NCBI GenBank assembly: GCA_938091905.1
Contig: CALKOM010000014.1
Coordinates: forward strand, 1 to 64,000
Direction: 5' to 3'
DNA length: 64,000 nucleotides
Source of the DNA: an uncultured Verrucomicrobiales bacterium
GTDB taxonomy: Bacteria > Verrucomicrobiota > Verrucomicrobiia > Verrucomicrobiales > DEV007
The position numbers and the translations under genes were made by a program. Positions 10,425-25,279 of the stretch are shown here, piece after piece (positions within the stretch are counted from its first letter, which is position 1; each line of letters starts with the position of its first letter). A model generated the notes under the pieces. That model ran no database searches, was not told the origin of the DNA, and was given only the letters and a program-made list of their open reading frames with translations.

Positions 10425-10711
10425 ATATCGAAATCGAGCGCCTTCCGATCCGTCGTGAAGGGTTTGATGACCGAATCCAGGTAAGCAACGTGCAGCGGAT
10501 CCACCCGATAAGCTTCGAGTGCCTCCATGGATTCGAGTTCTACCGACAGGAAGAATGACCACTCTTCATCGGGCACCACATTTCTCCCTGCCTGAACACG
10601 ACTGACGTGGGAAATGGCGCCGAGCTGGCTACGGGTCGTTTCGATAATCTCGCCTAGCTTGGCATCATCGACCTCTGGATTCAGCTTGAAGAAGACAAGA
10701 TGGAGAATCAT
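10421..10711 (-). CDS. Dabb family (stress-responsive A/B barrel) protein
   Basis: MILHLVFFKL...LEAYRVDPLHV...ALDF pattern. Confidence 0.85.
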   Translation of the reverse strand: MILHLVFFKLNPEVDDAKLGEIIETTRSQLGAISHVSRVQAGRNVVPDEEWSFFLSVELESMEALEAYRVDPLHVAYLDSVIKPFTTDRKALDFDI

Positions 10712-19364: not shown

Positions 19365-20000
19365 ATGCCATTGACCGACACCCAGACGCAAGAGTCTCCA
19401 CCAAAGACTGGTCTCGAAGACGAGCCGCGCACCGCGCAAGAAGCACGCTGGGATGAGAACTTCGCCAAACTAGCATTACGCTATGCCGGAGGAGAACACG
19501 CCGATGTCCTTTACGCTCCTTGCGGGAGTACCGGACAATTCTACGAACTCCTGGCAAGCCGCGCGAAGCATCTGCATCTCGTCGAAGACAATCCCGCCAA
19601 ACTCGAATCCCTTCTCGCCACTCATCCGGATGCCAAACGCTGGGAGCCCCAGGTTGGCGAAGTCGCAAACCTTCCTCTAACAGACCAAAGCGTAGACCTC
19701 GCGTTCTGCATGCATCATTTCTACGACCTGCAGGATTCGGAGTCTCGTCTTGCGGCGCTCAAGGAACTCGCCCGCGTGAGCCGCCGTTACGTCGCCATCA
19801 GCGTGCATGACCGCGCGACCCTGAGCTATATTCGCAAACGCATTCGCAGCGAGAAGTCGTTCCCGGACTCTCTCAGAATGGCGACCATCCTCAAAGAGGC
19901 TGCCCACGCTGATCTAGGATTGGTGCTCAAGCACCCAACACTATCACTGTTCGCTTATCAGCGCTCGCTACTCTTCGAGAAAACTTCAGCGCGAGGTTAA
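19365..20000 (+). CDS. Class I SAM-dependent methyltransferase (divergent motif I)
   Basis: VLYAPCGSTG, LPLTDQSVDLAFC, ALKELARVSRRYV. Confidence 0.75.
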   Translation: MPLTDTQTQESPPKTGLEDEPRTAQEARWDENFAKLALRYAGGEHADVLYAPCGSTGQFYELLASRAKHLHLVEDNPAKLESLLATHPDAKRWEPQVGEVANLPLTDQSVDLAFCMHHFYDLQDSESRLAALKELARVSRRYVAISVHDRATLSYIRKRIRSEKSFPDSLRMATILKEAAHADLGLVLKHPTLSLFAYQRSLLFEKTSARG

Positions 20001-21007
20001 AGCATGCCCCGAGCAACCAGGTTGTTGAGACGGTGCGCCACATTCTCAACCCCGTCCAACACGGTATCGCTGTAGCTACGACCATCGGTCGTATCAATGC
20101 CATGCCCGGAGTCCAGCTTGCGAAGCCCTTCCAACGCAGGGTCCTCATGGTGAAAGAGTTCGACGAAAACATACTCCAGCTTACCTGTCTTCGCACAAGC
20201 AGCCATGAGTGCGCCAATCCACCCATCATCCGTGGTTAGGCAGCCGCGCGTGGTCTTGCTAGAAGCATGGAACATCCCGAGCTCTCCCGCTTTGGCCATG
20301 TCACGAATCACGGCCTCATTCTCGGGAATGGTTAGGCTGGAATCTCCACAGTGAGCAGCATCTACCATCACCTTGAAGAAGGCCTTACCTAGAGCCTTGT
20401 TCGTGGCTTTGACGATTGACCACGCCTTGCCTACATCCGTGAAGGTCTGAAACTCGCCACCCCGCAGAAACTCCATGTGCCATGCTTTAATACCACTGTT
20501 AGCAAGATCAGCCTCAGCATAGGCTCGCACATGCACTTTCACATTCTGAGCAACAGCGGCATCAAAATCAGCGCCCACTTTGGGAGTTGCCCCTGGCTTC
20601 ATCCATTCTTCGATCGATGTAGAAGCCACTTGGGTAATCTCATGTTGTTTAGCCAGGGTCAACCCATCCACCAGCATGCCAACGACCGCATCTTCGTCGT
20701 CGGGATTCATCGGATCAGCTCCACCGACCATGAGAATGAGGTGCACGGCCAGCCCCAGCGCCTTGAGACCCTCTATCATCTCATCATTATCTCCGGGCTC
20801 GACTCCTGGAAACACCGAAATCTGCACACAGTTAAATTTGACCGACGATTTCTGCACCAAGTGGGCCATTTCTGTAACAACCAAAAGCTTGCCATCCTCG
20901 CCGCGAGGCAGTCGGCCCTCTTCCGGAACCAGCCCGCCCACAAACTTGATGTGCGTAGGCACGATCCCGAGTTCCACCGATGTTCTGAGTGTGATGCTTT
21001 CAGCCAT
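19997..21007 (-). CDS. TIM-barrel sugar isomerase/epimerase-like protein (xylose isomerase-like fold)
   Basis: HMEFLRGGE, MVDAAH, FHAS...RG, VELF metal-site pattern as in ketose 3-epimerases. Confidence 0.7.
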   Translation of the reverse strand: MAESITLRTSVELGIVPTHIKFVGGLVPEEGRLPRGEDGKLLVVTEMAHLVQKSSVKFNCVQISVFPGVEPGDNDEMIEGLKALGLAVHLILMVGGADPMNPDDEDAVVGMLVDGLTLAKQHEITQVASTSIEEWMKPGATPKVGADFDAAVAQNVKVHVRAYAEADLANSGIKAWHMEFLRGGEFQTFTDVGKAWSIVKATNKALGKAFFKVMVDAAHCGDSSLTIPENEAVIRDMAKAGELGMFHASSKTTRGCLTTDDGWIGALMAACAKTGKLEYVFVELFHHEDPALEGLRKLDSGHGIDTTDGRSYSDTVLDGVENVAHRLNNLVARGML

Positions 21008-21105
21008 GCGCTGTGTTCGCGTAAATCAGATAGGGCGTCAAGCTTGGAGACTTAACCCCATGAAAGAGAGTGCAGCCCGACGGATCATGGACGAAACTCG
21101 AAACC

Positions 21106-22770
21106 ATGATCCGTCCTCTCGCGATCGTTTTGGCCTCTATGATGGTGAGTCCTATCTCCCTAATCGCCGACTCAGTGTGGGTTGAAGGAGAAACCGGTCA
21201 AACCACCAACCTGCGCAAGAACGGCTGGTATTCGTCCGTTCGAGCACAAGATTTGTCCGGAGCGGACTGGCTTGCCACGTATGGAAGTGATGTTCCCGTC
21301 GTCGCCACCTTTCCTCTTACGTTCACAAAAGCTGGGAACTACACGTTGTGGGTTCGAGCAAATCCTATCAACGCAACACTTCACGCTGCAATTGGTGCTT
21401 CAGAAAAATGGTTAGAAGTTCCTATTTCCTCAGATCGCCATGAAATAATTAACATTGCCTCTGATGGCAAACCAGACCTGCGCTTCCTCGCATGGAGCAA
21501 AGTTGGGCCGATATCGCTAGTAGAAGGCGAAACAAGACTTCGCTTTCGAATGTCTTCCAAGAATCGCAACCATGGTGCCATCGATTGTTTCTGCCTCACC
21601 ACCGACTCCGAGTGGAAACCAATTGGTATCTTAAAACCTAACGAATCTTCCAGTTGGCCCGCGCCAAAACTAACAGACACCAATCTCAGCCACTGGAGCG
21701 AATTCATTCGCCCGTCCGAAAAAGATCTCTCCTGGCGTGGCGTTCGTTGGCACCGCCATCTCGATGAAGCCGCGGCGGAAGCCAGCGACCTTGGGCGCCC
21801 CGTTCTCCTTTGGGCGATGAATGGGCATCCATGTGGTGAGACATGAAACAATGACGTCAAAGGACGCGACGAGATCTGGTCAGATCTCAACCTACAAAAG
21901 CTTTCCAAGGAATTTGTCTGTGTCATCGAGGAAACCTTTCATCTCCACCCGCCAAACTGGCTCAAGGATCCTCCGAGACCAAAGAGCACTGCGCTCTATC
22001 GCACCTATGTGAAGAATGCACCCAAGCTCTGGCCTAAAAACACCAGCACCTATCAAGGGTTCTATCTTATGAGCCCCACCGGTGACTACCTAGGTGGAAA
22101 CTTCGGCATTGTTCGTGAAGAAGAAGCGCGCAACTTGATGACAACAGCGTTAGAAAAATGGAAAGCGACGGGTGCGGCCATGCGCACCGTTTCAACGAAC
22201 CCTCCCGCCCTCTATGGTGGGAATGAGCCCCAACCTGGTTCTCTGAAACTGCAGCTCGCCTACCGTGACCTCCCACGCGGTGACGTTGAAAGACCAACCA
22301 CGGTCTACGTTCAGAATCCCTACAACCTCGGATGGTTTGATTTCTCAAAAGAGGAGGCGCGTGCGCTTCTCACAAAATCAGAAGAGCCGGTCACAATCCC
22401 GCACTCACTCTTTGCTAAGATGGCCACTCGAACACTAAAGGACGCTGTTCGGGGCCAGATGTCACGGTGGGATAGCTCGGCACTCCACTCTGGCTCCCTC
22501 ACTACGCAGCGAATCTTGAAAGCCGGTTCGCGGAGCTCCTATCGCCTAAAAGGATCCGTCAATCTGTCAGAGAATGAACGCCGCTATGAAGTTCAGTTGC
22601 TCGGCAAAGCCGTTTACGATGAACGCCTGCAGGCCTTTTTTGAATTTGAGCTCGTCGCCGTAGGCCAACGTAGTGGCAAAGGTGGTGCCAATGGCCGCGA
22701 AAACGATCTCGGACCTGCACCAATGGGAGTAGCTTTCAAGCTCTATCGATCACCCAAAACGAGCCGCTAA
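21106..22770 (+). CDS. Probable exported selenoprotein (~554 aa, Sec at codon 247): beta-sandwich domain plus thioredoxin-like domain
   Basis: Single frame with only TGA 21844-46 interrupting: ...RPVLLWAMNGHPCGET-U-NNDVKGRDEIWSDLNLQKLSKEFVCV..., continuing in frame into the 22009 ORF. SECIS-like hairpin downstream. Confidence 0.8.
21871..21888 (+). promoter_or_regulatory. Candidate bacterial SECIS element
   Basis: GAGATCT-GGTC-AGATCTC perfect 7-bp stem. The G-initiated loop begins 31 nt after the TGA. Confidence 0.7.
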
Positions 22771-22923
22771 CCAAGACTTCTTACATTGAGCATGTAGGTG
22801 AGATCTGCCGGATCAGACTCTAGCCTCTACCTTAGCGAAGCGATGAAGTTGTCCACTGTGCACGTGGTTGGATACGCATGGTATTCCCACACCACACCCA
22901 AGAAGTGCTCGCGCGACACGGGC

Positions 22924-23277
22924 TCACCCCGATGCTCGGCGGAAAAGCGCTCGCACCCGAGCAATGAGCTCTTTCATGCTGATGGGCTTCACCAAATAAT
23001 CATCTGCGTCCGTCTCCAGTCCAGCCACGCGATCATCTACCATGCCTTTGGCTGTCAACATCAGAATGGAGGGCTTACAACTACGACGCCGCAACTTCAG
23101 ACACACTCTGTAGCAATCCACCCCGGGCATCATCACGTCGAATAGAATCAGATTACAAGCGCGCTCCAAGCCAAGTTGACCATCTTCAGCTGTGGCCACA
23201 CGAGAACCATGCCCCCGCAAGGCCTCTGCTAGAGCCATCCTTATGGCCAGTTCGTCATCGATGATGAGTAGACTAGT
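22924..23277 (-). pseudogene. OmpR-family response regulator remnant (receiver only; start codon and DNA-binding domain lost)
   Basis: LLIIDDELAIRMALAEAL...LILFDVMMPG..ILMLTAKG..DRVAGL...ADDYLVKP..MKELIARVRALFRR, then stop. Confidence 0.8.
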
Positions 23278-23470
23278 CTAGGTACCGGACTTGGGTCGTG
23301 GAAACCGCAAGGTGAAGGTACTGGCTTTACCAGAAGCGCTATCAAGCATGACCTTGCCGCCGTAAGCCATAAGTAGCATTGACGCCACAGGTGCTCGCAA
23401 TTCATGCAACACGCGCGCCACAAACCGGCTCTCGATATCACTCGCGACGCAATGCATGCTGTGTCAACGC
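23278..23470 (-). pseudogene. Sensor histidine kinase remnant with large internal deletion
   Basis: Manual translation: SRFVARVLHELRAPVASMLLMA joined directly to YGGKVMLDSASGKASTFTLRFP*. Confidence 0.7.
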
Positions 23471-23619
23471 CAAGTGGTGCGTCTTTCAATCCACGACAGC
23501 AATTACGGTGATAACGCTTGTAGGGTTAAGAAGACGTTCAAAAATATTGTCATAACACCACGACCACGCCGAATGCAGCGTTCGACCATCATTCTTCTCC
23601 CACTGCGATGTCGTAAATT

Positions 23620-25193
23620 CTATAACACCGCCCCACTCAAGTATGGGCAGCGGGAATGACCCACTGAAGACGACATCGATGATCTCCTTCCGGGTGGTGC
23701 GACAGATTCTCGCACGTTGCCAGTCGACACTCTAATTATTCGGTCGTTGTGTCTTAGGAGTATTGGCCCAATCAGCAAGATGGCAGCCAAGCTGGGTGTC
23801 TCGCCAGAACCTGTCGCCAACAGTGTTTGATAGAGTATCTGCGGAAGGCATAGTGTGCTCGCTCCCTGCTTCTTCCATTCAAGATAACGCAATCGCATCG
23901 TATGGGCGCGCATAGGTCTACCCTGAACTTCGGCCCCAGGATCGGCCCCACGTGCGATCAGCTCCTGAGCCTCATCCCACTTCTTATCTTGCAGAGCATG
24001 GAACATGCGGTGTCTTCTCCTGATTATCACCGGCATCGATTTCTGCAACGGCCTCTATCAATGCTGGCACTAACTCGAAAGCCCCACCACGAACAGCTGC
24101 ATGTAGAACAGTCCCGCAAAACCGGTCCGTCATGGTTAGATCTGTTCGCGAAACAAGCTGGATGGAAAACTTGAAACGCTCACTGTCTGCAAGCGCTTAA
24201 TGAAATGCTGAGGGATATTGTCCCACAACAGCACTTACATCCGCGCCTTGCAGTGAGAGCAAAGCAAAGATCTCGTTTTGATCGCGGTCGATAGCCCAGA
24301 TTAGCGGTGTCGGTTCTCCTTCCGCAGCGACGAGATTCAGATTAGCATCCCGCTCATGCAACAGCTTCACAAAGGGATGTCCATCGCGAAGGACGGCAGG
24401 ATCTAACATCATTATTCTCCTTTCGCGTTTCTTGCCGTCAAAGCGAAACAAATCGTTCTTGATCTCGTATATGCCATTTGGAGTAGAATTCCTGTTCAAC
24501 AACAGCCTACCGACACTCTGGAACCCACTCACAATCGCCTCTCCTAGAGGAGAGCCGCACTCGATATCCACGCCTGACGTTATTAGATATTCACATGCTT
24601 TTAGGCGCCCATACTGCGCAGCGATCGAGAGAGCTGTTTCGTGATCGATATCCACGCCATTCTTGAGAAGAAACTCTAGAACCCGCAAGTGTCCGTTCCT
24701 AGCAGCTCGATGGACGGGAGCGTAACCTTCTTCCACGGCAGAAATCAGAACTGGGCTGTCTGAGATGATCTTGCTCAGACGCTCACTCTCCCTCGCTTCT
24801 CCCTCGCTTCTTCATCAAGCAAATCGAGCGCCGTTTCTACTGAAGAAGCTTTCTCTCACAAGGCGAGTAGATTCTCTCGCCTGAGCCGGGCAAGCGAATC
24901 ATGCGCGGGAAATTCGGCAAGCTACTGCAGATAAAGCTTCACTGCCTCCTTAGGGCGGTTCTGCTTACGCCGGACTTCGACGAGCCAGAAGAGCGCTGTA
25001 GCGGCGAACTGGCGATGGGAGTGGTAAGTCTCCAACAGCTTCTCATAGCCCGGGGCCGGTTGCGTCAGGCCTTGAGAGGCTTCCTCCTCAATTAGAGCCT
25101 CACGAAGAAGTTTCTCCAAGTCATCTCTGCGAGATTCTTGAGCAGAAAGGCTAAAGTAACAAGAACCGAAAGAATGAGGATCGATGGCTTCAT
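23620..25193 (-). pseudogene. Fragmented secreted TPR/ankyrin-repeat protein
   Basis: ATG 25193 gives MKPSILILSVLVTLA, then a frameshift to LLREALIEEEA...AATALF..., an in-frame stop, and ankyrin pieces (GYAPVHRAARNGHLRVLEFLL; TPLIWAI; ELIARGADP) in different frames. Confidence 0.75.
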
Positions 25194-25279
25194 TATACCA
25201 AGATAGCACCTGCCGCTCCCGCATTGCGTCATGGATGCGGCATATCGACATCTGTCAATCTTGTGCTAGTTCTGGTCCC

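Follow-up and report, generated by a model that had tools for sequence, protein, structure and literature searches.

A putative exported three-domain selenoprotein from an uncultured Verrucomicrobiales bacterium and its apparently uncatalogued family

The window analyzed in this study is a stretch of 64,000 nucleotides from the genome of an uncultured Verrucomicrobiales bacterium (GenBank assembly GCA_938091905.1, contig CALKOM010000014.1, positions 1 to 64,000 of the forward strand). Two of its open reading frames (translation table 11), one closing at 21846 with a TGA and the other spanning 22009-22770, lie in the same frame, and the 162 nt between them (21847-22008) contain no stop codon. 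When TGA is read as selenocysteine (Sec, U), the frame from 21106 to 22770 yields a protein of 554 residues, in which codon 247 (21844-21846) is the sole TGA. The two open frames and the stop-free segment between them, from which the original prediction of a hidden selenoprotein had started, are thus both present. The features of the locus are:

21106..22770, + strand: read-through gene (P0001), 554 aa, with a single in-frame TGA; full-length fused homologues share its start context
21106..21168, + strand: probable signal peptide, residues 1-21, with a basic N-terminus, a hydrophobic stretch and a small residue before the mature start
21169..21651, + strand: CBM6/CBM35-like beta-sandwich spanning residues ~22-182, with counterparts at the N-terminus of ~890-aa proteins
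21718..22176, + strand: predicted thioredoxin-fold domain, residues ~205-357, AlphaFold2 model with pLDDT 87.9
21832..21834, + strand: Cys243 (TGT), candidate resolving thiol at -4, a clade-specific position
21844..21846, + strand: Sec247 (TGA), in the model at the N-terminal end of the helix following the central strand
21853..21868, + strand: possible small helix between the UGA and the SECIS (weak), with 77% of cells paired and a two-sided change in 1 of 6 pairs
21871..21888, + strand: SECIS-like hairpin GAGATCT-GGTC-AGATCTC, with a 7-bp stem and a GGUC loop (21878-21881) that lies 31 nt after the UGA
22219..22767, + strand: C-terminal antiparallel beta-sheet domain, residues ~372-554, modelled with pLDDT 91.7

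The TGA at codon 247 is not an assembly error, because two further DNA assemblies from seawater and one contig of an RNA library contain it unaltered. RNA-library contigs from two studies flank the UGA on both sides with 99+% identity; since contigs cannot demonstrate transcription, we do not count them as evidence of expression. At least half of the sampled words occur in 14 sequencing runs, all of them metagenomes that are labelled marine, seawater or ballast-water or have no label, and six of these runs may be the DNA's own source. The claim that the gene carries no other lesion needs one small qualification: at position 21854 the window has an A (Asp250), and all three runs that cover the site have a G, which restores the Gly found at this column (+3 relative to the UGA) in 76 of 77 distinct homologous loci. 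This A is either a rare allele or a consensus error of this assembly.

The column of codon 247 is strikingly uniform among homologues. A search of the 401 genomes of the class with the core of the protein gave matches in 10 genomes, and all 12 matches that span the column (the window included) carry a TGA there. In a scan of species-representative genomes, at least 585 loci were confirmed from 599 candidate stretches, and the best 80 were retained; in these best 80, the column is TGA in 79 and Ala in one, as recovered with two scan patterns of which one was able to catch Cys forms. The 80 loci belong to Verrucomicrobiota, Planctomycetota and Armatimonadota, together with single Myxococcota, Marinimicrobia and Paracoccaceae bins. 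A cultured organism, Roseibacillus persicicus KCTC 12988, carries an unfused homologue (L052). Downstream of the UGA the frame is kept open: none of the 79 genes has an in-frame stop within 54 codons, compared with 56 and 51 genes in the other two frames, and the supposed gap between the two ORFs is 59% identical to its counterpart in 14 fused homologues, compared with 41-47% for the called second ORF. At the protein level, 3471 clusters match the family at E <= 0.001, and the named matches are all labelled 'hypothetical protein'. Among the best 150 representatives, 29 span the column without a stop, and their commonest residue at this position is Cys (10), followed by Asp (6), Ser (4), Ala (3), Gly (2) and one each of Glu, Asn, Arg and Tyr. 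The similarity extends to both sides of the column, as had been predicted for homologues with TGA or Cys, and a TGA form aligned with a Cys form shows 49% identity across 378 columns. As 19 of the 29 stop-free forms carry a residue other than Cys, the fold appears to serve some role without the redox residue.

The mechanism of Sec recoding in bacteria is textbook knowledge. In the published bSECIS model, the element has a loop of 3-9 nt with a G in the first two places, a stem of 4-16 bp and a spacing of 16-37 nt (PMC13188914); the hairpin of the window gene falls inside all three limits, with its loop near the far end of the spacing range. Its energy is -8.7 kcal/mol in a 41-nt fold and -7.2 for the bare stem, next to a published limit of -7.5. 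By folding alone, the hairpin is weak: against shuffled sequences, it scores z -1.57 in a 60-nt window and -1.61 in a 41-nt window, with 13 and 16 of 200 shuffles equally stable, and a 100-nt window around it gives z 0.10. Taken singly, it is within chance, and its support comes from conservation. Over the set of 77 distinct TGA loci, the loop is closed by the Ser codon at +12, and this codon is TCA 51 times out of 70; among the other Ser codons of these genes, TCA accounts for 81 of 1180. In an alignment of 73 downstream segments, which omits the four loci with a spacing shorter by one codon (L057, L059, L062 and L083), column pair 31-42 is GC in 39, AU in 18, GU in 14 and unpaired in 2. The covariation score was reached by none of 500 shuffles, a measure that is inflated by relatedness; the outer stem pairs are poorly kept, and most stem pairs are also constrained by the encoded residues. 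RNAalifold found no consensus structure in the 73 segments, and an Rfam search of 20500-23500 returned no match. Under a loose SECIS test, 51 of 79 homologues pass, as do 405 of 2370 control positions and 16 of 78 terminal stops.

A genome-wide scan for stop codons followed by a hairpin with a GGT loop found 8 such sites among 5265 TGA codons and 3 among 6536 TAA/TAG codons, and the longest stem is that of the window gene. The second-longest belongs to a TlpA/peroxiredoxin-like UxxC selenoprotein gene (G000:C159, TGA at 10627, + strand), whose 6-bp hairpin has a GGTC loop and likewise a spacing of 31 nt. The SECIS loop of E. coli fdhF is also GGUC. In other clades of the family, a G-led loop lies ~21-24 nt from the UGA. 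The conserved GGUC-loop hairpin, its one covarying pair and the strong bias towards TCA uphold the SECIS claim of the original prediction. Between the UGA and this hairpin, four pairs of the small helix at 21853-21868 form in the window; with little covariation among homologues, we do not claim it as a conserved element.

The genome of the organism, which is 95% complete, contains selA, selB, selD and a tRNA-Sec with the anticodon TCA, all above curated cut-offs, and with them the whole machinery that Sec insertion calls for. Its selD (G000:C162:416-2809, - strand, L021) forms the C-terminal part of a frame of ~750 aa with a long oxidoreductase-like N-terminal region, and has Cys, not Sec, at the catalytic site. 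Across the class, the family profile matches 12 of 401 genomes, and selA is found in all 12 of these, compared with 55 of the 401 overall; the 12 carriers represent 12 genera in 8 families, and kin among them are not independent data points.

The predicted protein is built of three domains behind a signal peptide. Homologues show the same signal-like pattern ahead of a conserved WVEGE, and the protein is, as far as can be judged from sequence, very likely exported from the cytoplasm through this peptide, as originally proposed. The sandwich that follows is 31-44% identical to the N-terminus of ~890-aa proteins of Planctomycetota and Verrucomicrobiota, a few of which are named GH5 or GH42 at their source. 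Its profile gave weak matches to the CBM regions of 3wnl and 2cdo (E ~0.07), and Pfam searches with 15 sandwich members gave matches that all lie below curated cut-offs, to CBM_6 in two (E 5.6e-4), to CBM_35 in one (E 5.8e-4) and to DUF5077 in five; the window's own copy matched none of CBM_6, CBM_35 and DUF5077. The matches to CBM6 and CBM35 cover most of the domain, including an N-terminal ExE motif, and the module differs from these relatives in that it is joined to a redox domain, not to a glycoside hydrolase. Among the best 80 of the at least 585 homologues, 16 possess the sandwich, and 15 of these fall together with the window protein in one clade of 21 rows with an SH-aLRT support of 100, in a quick tree that was used for the fused clade only. 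The sandwich is therefore best described, on the sequences compared, as an accessory fusion of one clade. The original prediction of a carbohydrate-binding-like sandwich holds up for the sandwich itself, while its carbohydrate-binding nature is suggested by the weak profile matches and the fusion is limited to this clade.

For the two-domain core, AlphaFold2 gave a model with a pTM of 0.86. Residues ~205-357 are predicted to adopt a thioredoxin fold of the DsbD-gamma/DUF255 class, in line with the expectation of a thioredoxin-like Sec domain: the closest structural matches are 3f9u_B (Z 13.2, rmsd 2.1 over 110 residues) and 3ira (DUF255, Z 10.4). The ~175-aa C-terminal domain, which was overlooked when the protein was taken for a fusion of the sandwich and the thioredoxin domain, belongs to the family core. 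It carries conserved RDLP, DxVRGQ and GxRxGxxxxNxR motifs with invariant Asn, Asp, Arg and Gly residues. Its best structural matches are outer-membrane barrels and other generic sheets with Z up to 6.7, and Foldseek found none at E <= 0.001; matches of so generic a kind demonstrate neither a new fold nor a membrane barrel.

In thioredoxins, the attacking thiol immediately precedes the helix that comes after the central strand. In the model, Sec247 occupies this very position, and the loop ahead of it is lengthened. The canonical dithiol motif (U/C)xxC is not found, as no second Cys stands at +3, where Gly prevails. Instead, most of the 79 TGA homologues have a Cys upstream of the UGA, at -2 in 53 and at -4 in 21, with neither in 5. 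A C-x3-U pattern had been predicted for the window gene, and Cys243 indeed lies four residues before the UGA, within the motif CGETUNND; the pattern is not that of the family, in which C-x-U predominates and the overall motif reads GHPxGxxUNNG. A His at -6 is present in 77 of 77 distinct TGA loci and replaced by Asn in some relatives.

The source genome encodes four members of the family, each with one TGA. One of them (L117, G000:C2:220-1383, - strand) is a paralogue without the N-terminal sandwich, with the motif C-T-U and a different candidate SECIS loop ~21 nt past the TGA. Two more (L119, G000:C114:49033-50922, - strand; L120, G000:C77:5909-7579, + strand) are distant paralogues with a helical N-terminal domain, a C-U motif and one in-frame TGA each, and the copy on C114 lies ~10 kb from selB. 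Genomes with selA also contain other thioredoxin-like genes that bear a TGA and a C-U motif and vary in their C-termini (L139, L140, L142 and L143). In one member (L144, G400:C80), the TGA at the column is followed by a TAA nine codons on, and this is a probable decayed or mis-assembled copy. The neighbourhoods of the 80 loci share no gene beyond those of close kin or common domain families, and no conserved electron donor was found among them. On the strand of the gene, no promoter- or terminator-like site exceeded shuffled sequences. The divergent gene upstream in the window (19997-21007, - strand, 336 aa) has no Pfam match at E <= 0.01, and we presume from its appearance that it is akin to the sugar-phosphate isomerase/epimerase barrels. 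Downstream, a response-regulator receiver ORF (22924-23238, - strand) is missing ~12 positions from the start of the model, and pieces of ankyrin repeats (23620-25251, - strand) are spread across several short ORFs; both look broken.

Given the TGA in 79 of 80 retained homologues, the Cys in 10 of 29 stop-free ones and the selA in 12 of 12 carriers, the apparent stop is almost certainly a selenocysteine codon, and the gene would encode one exported three-domain protein of a large bacterial family. We have little doubt that SelB and Sec-tRNA(UCA) would bind the GGUC-loop hairpin 31 nt downstream and insert Sec at codon 247, and the signal peptide would, with high probability, then carry the protein out of the cytoplasm. 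There, the protein would probably work as a thiol-disulfide-type oxidoreductase with the selenolate as its nucleophile, and its most likely reaction is the reduction or rearrangement of oxidised cysteines in a substrate of the periplasm or cell surface; Cys243, which lies in the lengthened loop and is dispensable in the family, could resolve a selenenylsulfide. The Sec247 adduct would be resolved either by Cys243 or by an outside thiol. The conserved C-terminal sheet may well pack on the thioredoxin domain and provide a substrate-binding surface, and we propose tentatively that in this clade the CBM6/35-like module, borrowed from glycoside-hydrolase-like proteins, could tether the enzyme to a glycan. 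Overall, we consider an exported extracytoplasmic selenol oxidoreductase, here perhaps glycan-tethered, a likely explanation for the gene.

Among the alternatives, one accepts the insertion of Sec and differs in its consequence: the protein might be a ligand- or metal-binding sensor or carrier, in which Sec, the Cys close to it and the conserved His at -6 serve as ligands. We judge this unlikely, and yet it is the main rival, because the module of thioredoxin and sheet domains also stands behind kinases and FecR domains, mostly without the redox residue. Such fusions were seen with Ser/Thr kinases (P0080, P0081, P0090, P0125 and P0182) and with FecR domains (P0128, P0169, P0195 and P0218), which is the usual place of extracytoplasmic sensor domains; in them the module, mostly with a residue other than Cys at the Sec column, looks as if it were such a sensor. 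The invariance of the His in the TGA loci and the lack of a canonical CxxC fit this alternative as well. By contrast, the placement of Sec at the attacking position of thioredoxins argues for catalysis, as does the neighbouring Cys, which is retained in 74 of 79 homologues despite shifting between -2 and -4; moreover, the His gives way to Asn in some relatives, and metal-resistance genes were not found as neighbours among the 80 loci.

That the TGA is a genuine stop, separating two genes or breaking a pseudogene, appears very improbable. It is true that databases store the family in split pieces, since 121 of the best 150 protein representatives begin past the column and three database proteins end exactly at it, and that genes of broken appearance follow shortly downstream in the window. 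However, the break would fall inside a single folded domain, and the stop at the column is never TAA or TAG, while the terminal stops of the same 79 genes are TGA in 37, TAG in 31 and TAA in 11. Nor is there a conserved restart, as 36 of the 79 genes have no in-frame ATG within 60 codons after the UGA, and neither the strict co-occurrence with selA nor the existence of stop-free Cys forms agrees with this alternative. Still harder to credit is a reassignment of TGA to Trp or Gly in this organism (code 4 or 25), or leakage through the codon; this alternative has the open frame alone in its favour and is opposed by the selA, selB and selD matches without internal stops, by a gene with one TGA in 554 codons and TGG for every Trp, by the absence of Trp from the column in all 29 stop-free homologues and by the tRNA-Sec with its TCA anticodon. 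None of the outcomes named beforehand as speaking against recoding, namely homologues marked by Trp, Arg or Gly at the column, separate genes with other stop codons, or missing Sec machinery, was encountered.

While selenocysteine insertion here resembles the known bacterial SelB/bSECIS system of the E. coli formate dehydrogenase type in its in-frame UGA, its small G-led apical loop and the presence of selA, selB, selC and selD in the genome (PMC13188914), the protein itself fits no catalogued family that we compared. Searches of Pfam and NCBIfam with the window protein and 12 family members gave nothing above cut-off, a PDB sequence search with the window protein gave no match, and profiles gave weak matches only. 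The nearest NCBIfam model is that of the VPGUxxT type 2 proteins (NF041383), which are likewise exported-type thioredoxin-like selenoproteins; six of the 12 family members give weak matches to it around the strand and the motif, with a best E of 0.0019 and 11.8-12.7 bits where the cut-off is 275, but they have the motif GHPxGxxUNNG in place of VPGUxxT, and a different C-terminal domain. Despite the common PxGxxU pattern, the model of TsoC (NF045708, NEPxGxxU) found no match at E <= 1 in the genome and none in the 12 family members. With the Thioredoxin_7, DUF255, DsbD-gamma and DsbH domains (3f9u, 3ira, 2ju5 and 1vrs), the family shares its fold class, N-terminal helix included (Z 9-13), and it has weak matches below cut-off to PF13899 and PF03190, yet it differs from them by the Sec in place of the first Cys, the lack of a Cys at +3, the longer preceding loop and the attached beta-sheet domain.

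Table 1 of a 2026 review, with 119 families, holds no entry with the motif or architecture of the family (PMC13188914), and this review, together with NCBIfam, was also the route by which the families of Haft and Tolstoy (2025) were compared. The new families described for deep-Sep are different (PMC12013277), and the comparison with BSepDB covered its abstract and passages (PMC13326102). Table S9 of PMC4807772 gives planctomycete candidates by their IMG ids alone, under the names 'hypothetical' and 'thiol-disulfide isomerase-like thioredoxin', and one of them could be a family member. Literature searches, chiefly of open-access papers, yielded no description of the family. The selenoprotein family is real and, as far as the catalogues were compared, uncatalogued, though the recoding system itself is known, and the original impression that its architecture matches no described selenoprotein family agrees with this.

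A comparison of a different kind leads to eukaryotes. Human selenoprotein N (SELENON) is a lumenal thioredoxin-domain selenoprotein with an SCUG motif (PMC12839072, PMC8967691). Both it and the window protein would be extracytoplasmic thioredoxin-domain selenoproteins, and the distant family members L119, L120 and L140 have C-U after acidic residues. The segment around this C-U presumably resembles SELENON, most of all in L140. The window protein, on the other hand, does not have the SCUG motif but C-x3-U, and C-U is confined to distant members; neither a transmembrane anchor nor an EF-hand is seen in it (none in Pfam at E <= 1 for the latter), and its first residues look like a signal that would be cleaved off. 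When the member most similar to SelN was used as the seed of a search, close bacterial relatives alone were recovered (31 of 251 candidates). A thesis is said to report a SelN-like protein in Poribacteria. In the literature searched, we found no published description of a bacterial SelN, and the passages of PMC7539508 that were consulted are silent on bacterial forms. A possible kinship to human selenoprotein N is a lead. A more far-reaching reading, which we consider possible but rather doubtful, would make the family a large bacterial branch, dominated by Sec, of the superfamily that gave rise to eukaryotic SELENON: an extracytoplasmic selenol redox module of thioredoxin fold and beta-sheet domain that was aimed at glycans by CBM fusion in marine PVC bacteria and reused without its redox residue as a kinase or anti-sigma sensor.

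Given its size, with at least 585 loci in species-representative genomes and 3471 protein clusters at E <= 0.001, this is a big family, which has been stored as split 'hypothetical proteins' and whose unfused and CBM-fused forms are nearly always Sec-encoded. It offers a C-terminal domain without a solved relative and a natural series of SECIS spacings (~22 and 31 nt) inside one family. If the SelN link is true, its members would provide soluble, tractable bacterial models for a human disease protein whose chemistry is uncertain (SEPN1 myopathy). For the organisms themselves, the family draws attention to selenium use in PVC and Armatimonadota bacteria, and it adds to a marine polysaccharide-degrading lineage a putative selenoenzyme coupled to a probable carbohydrate-binding module.
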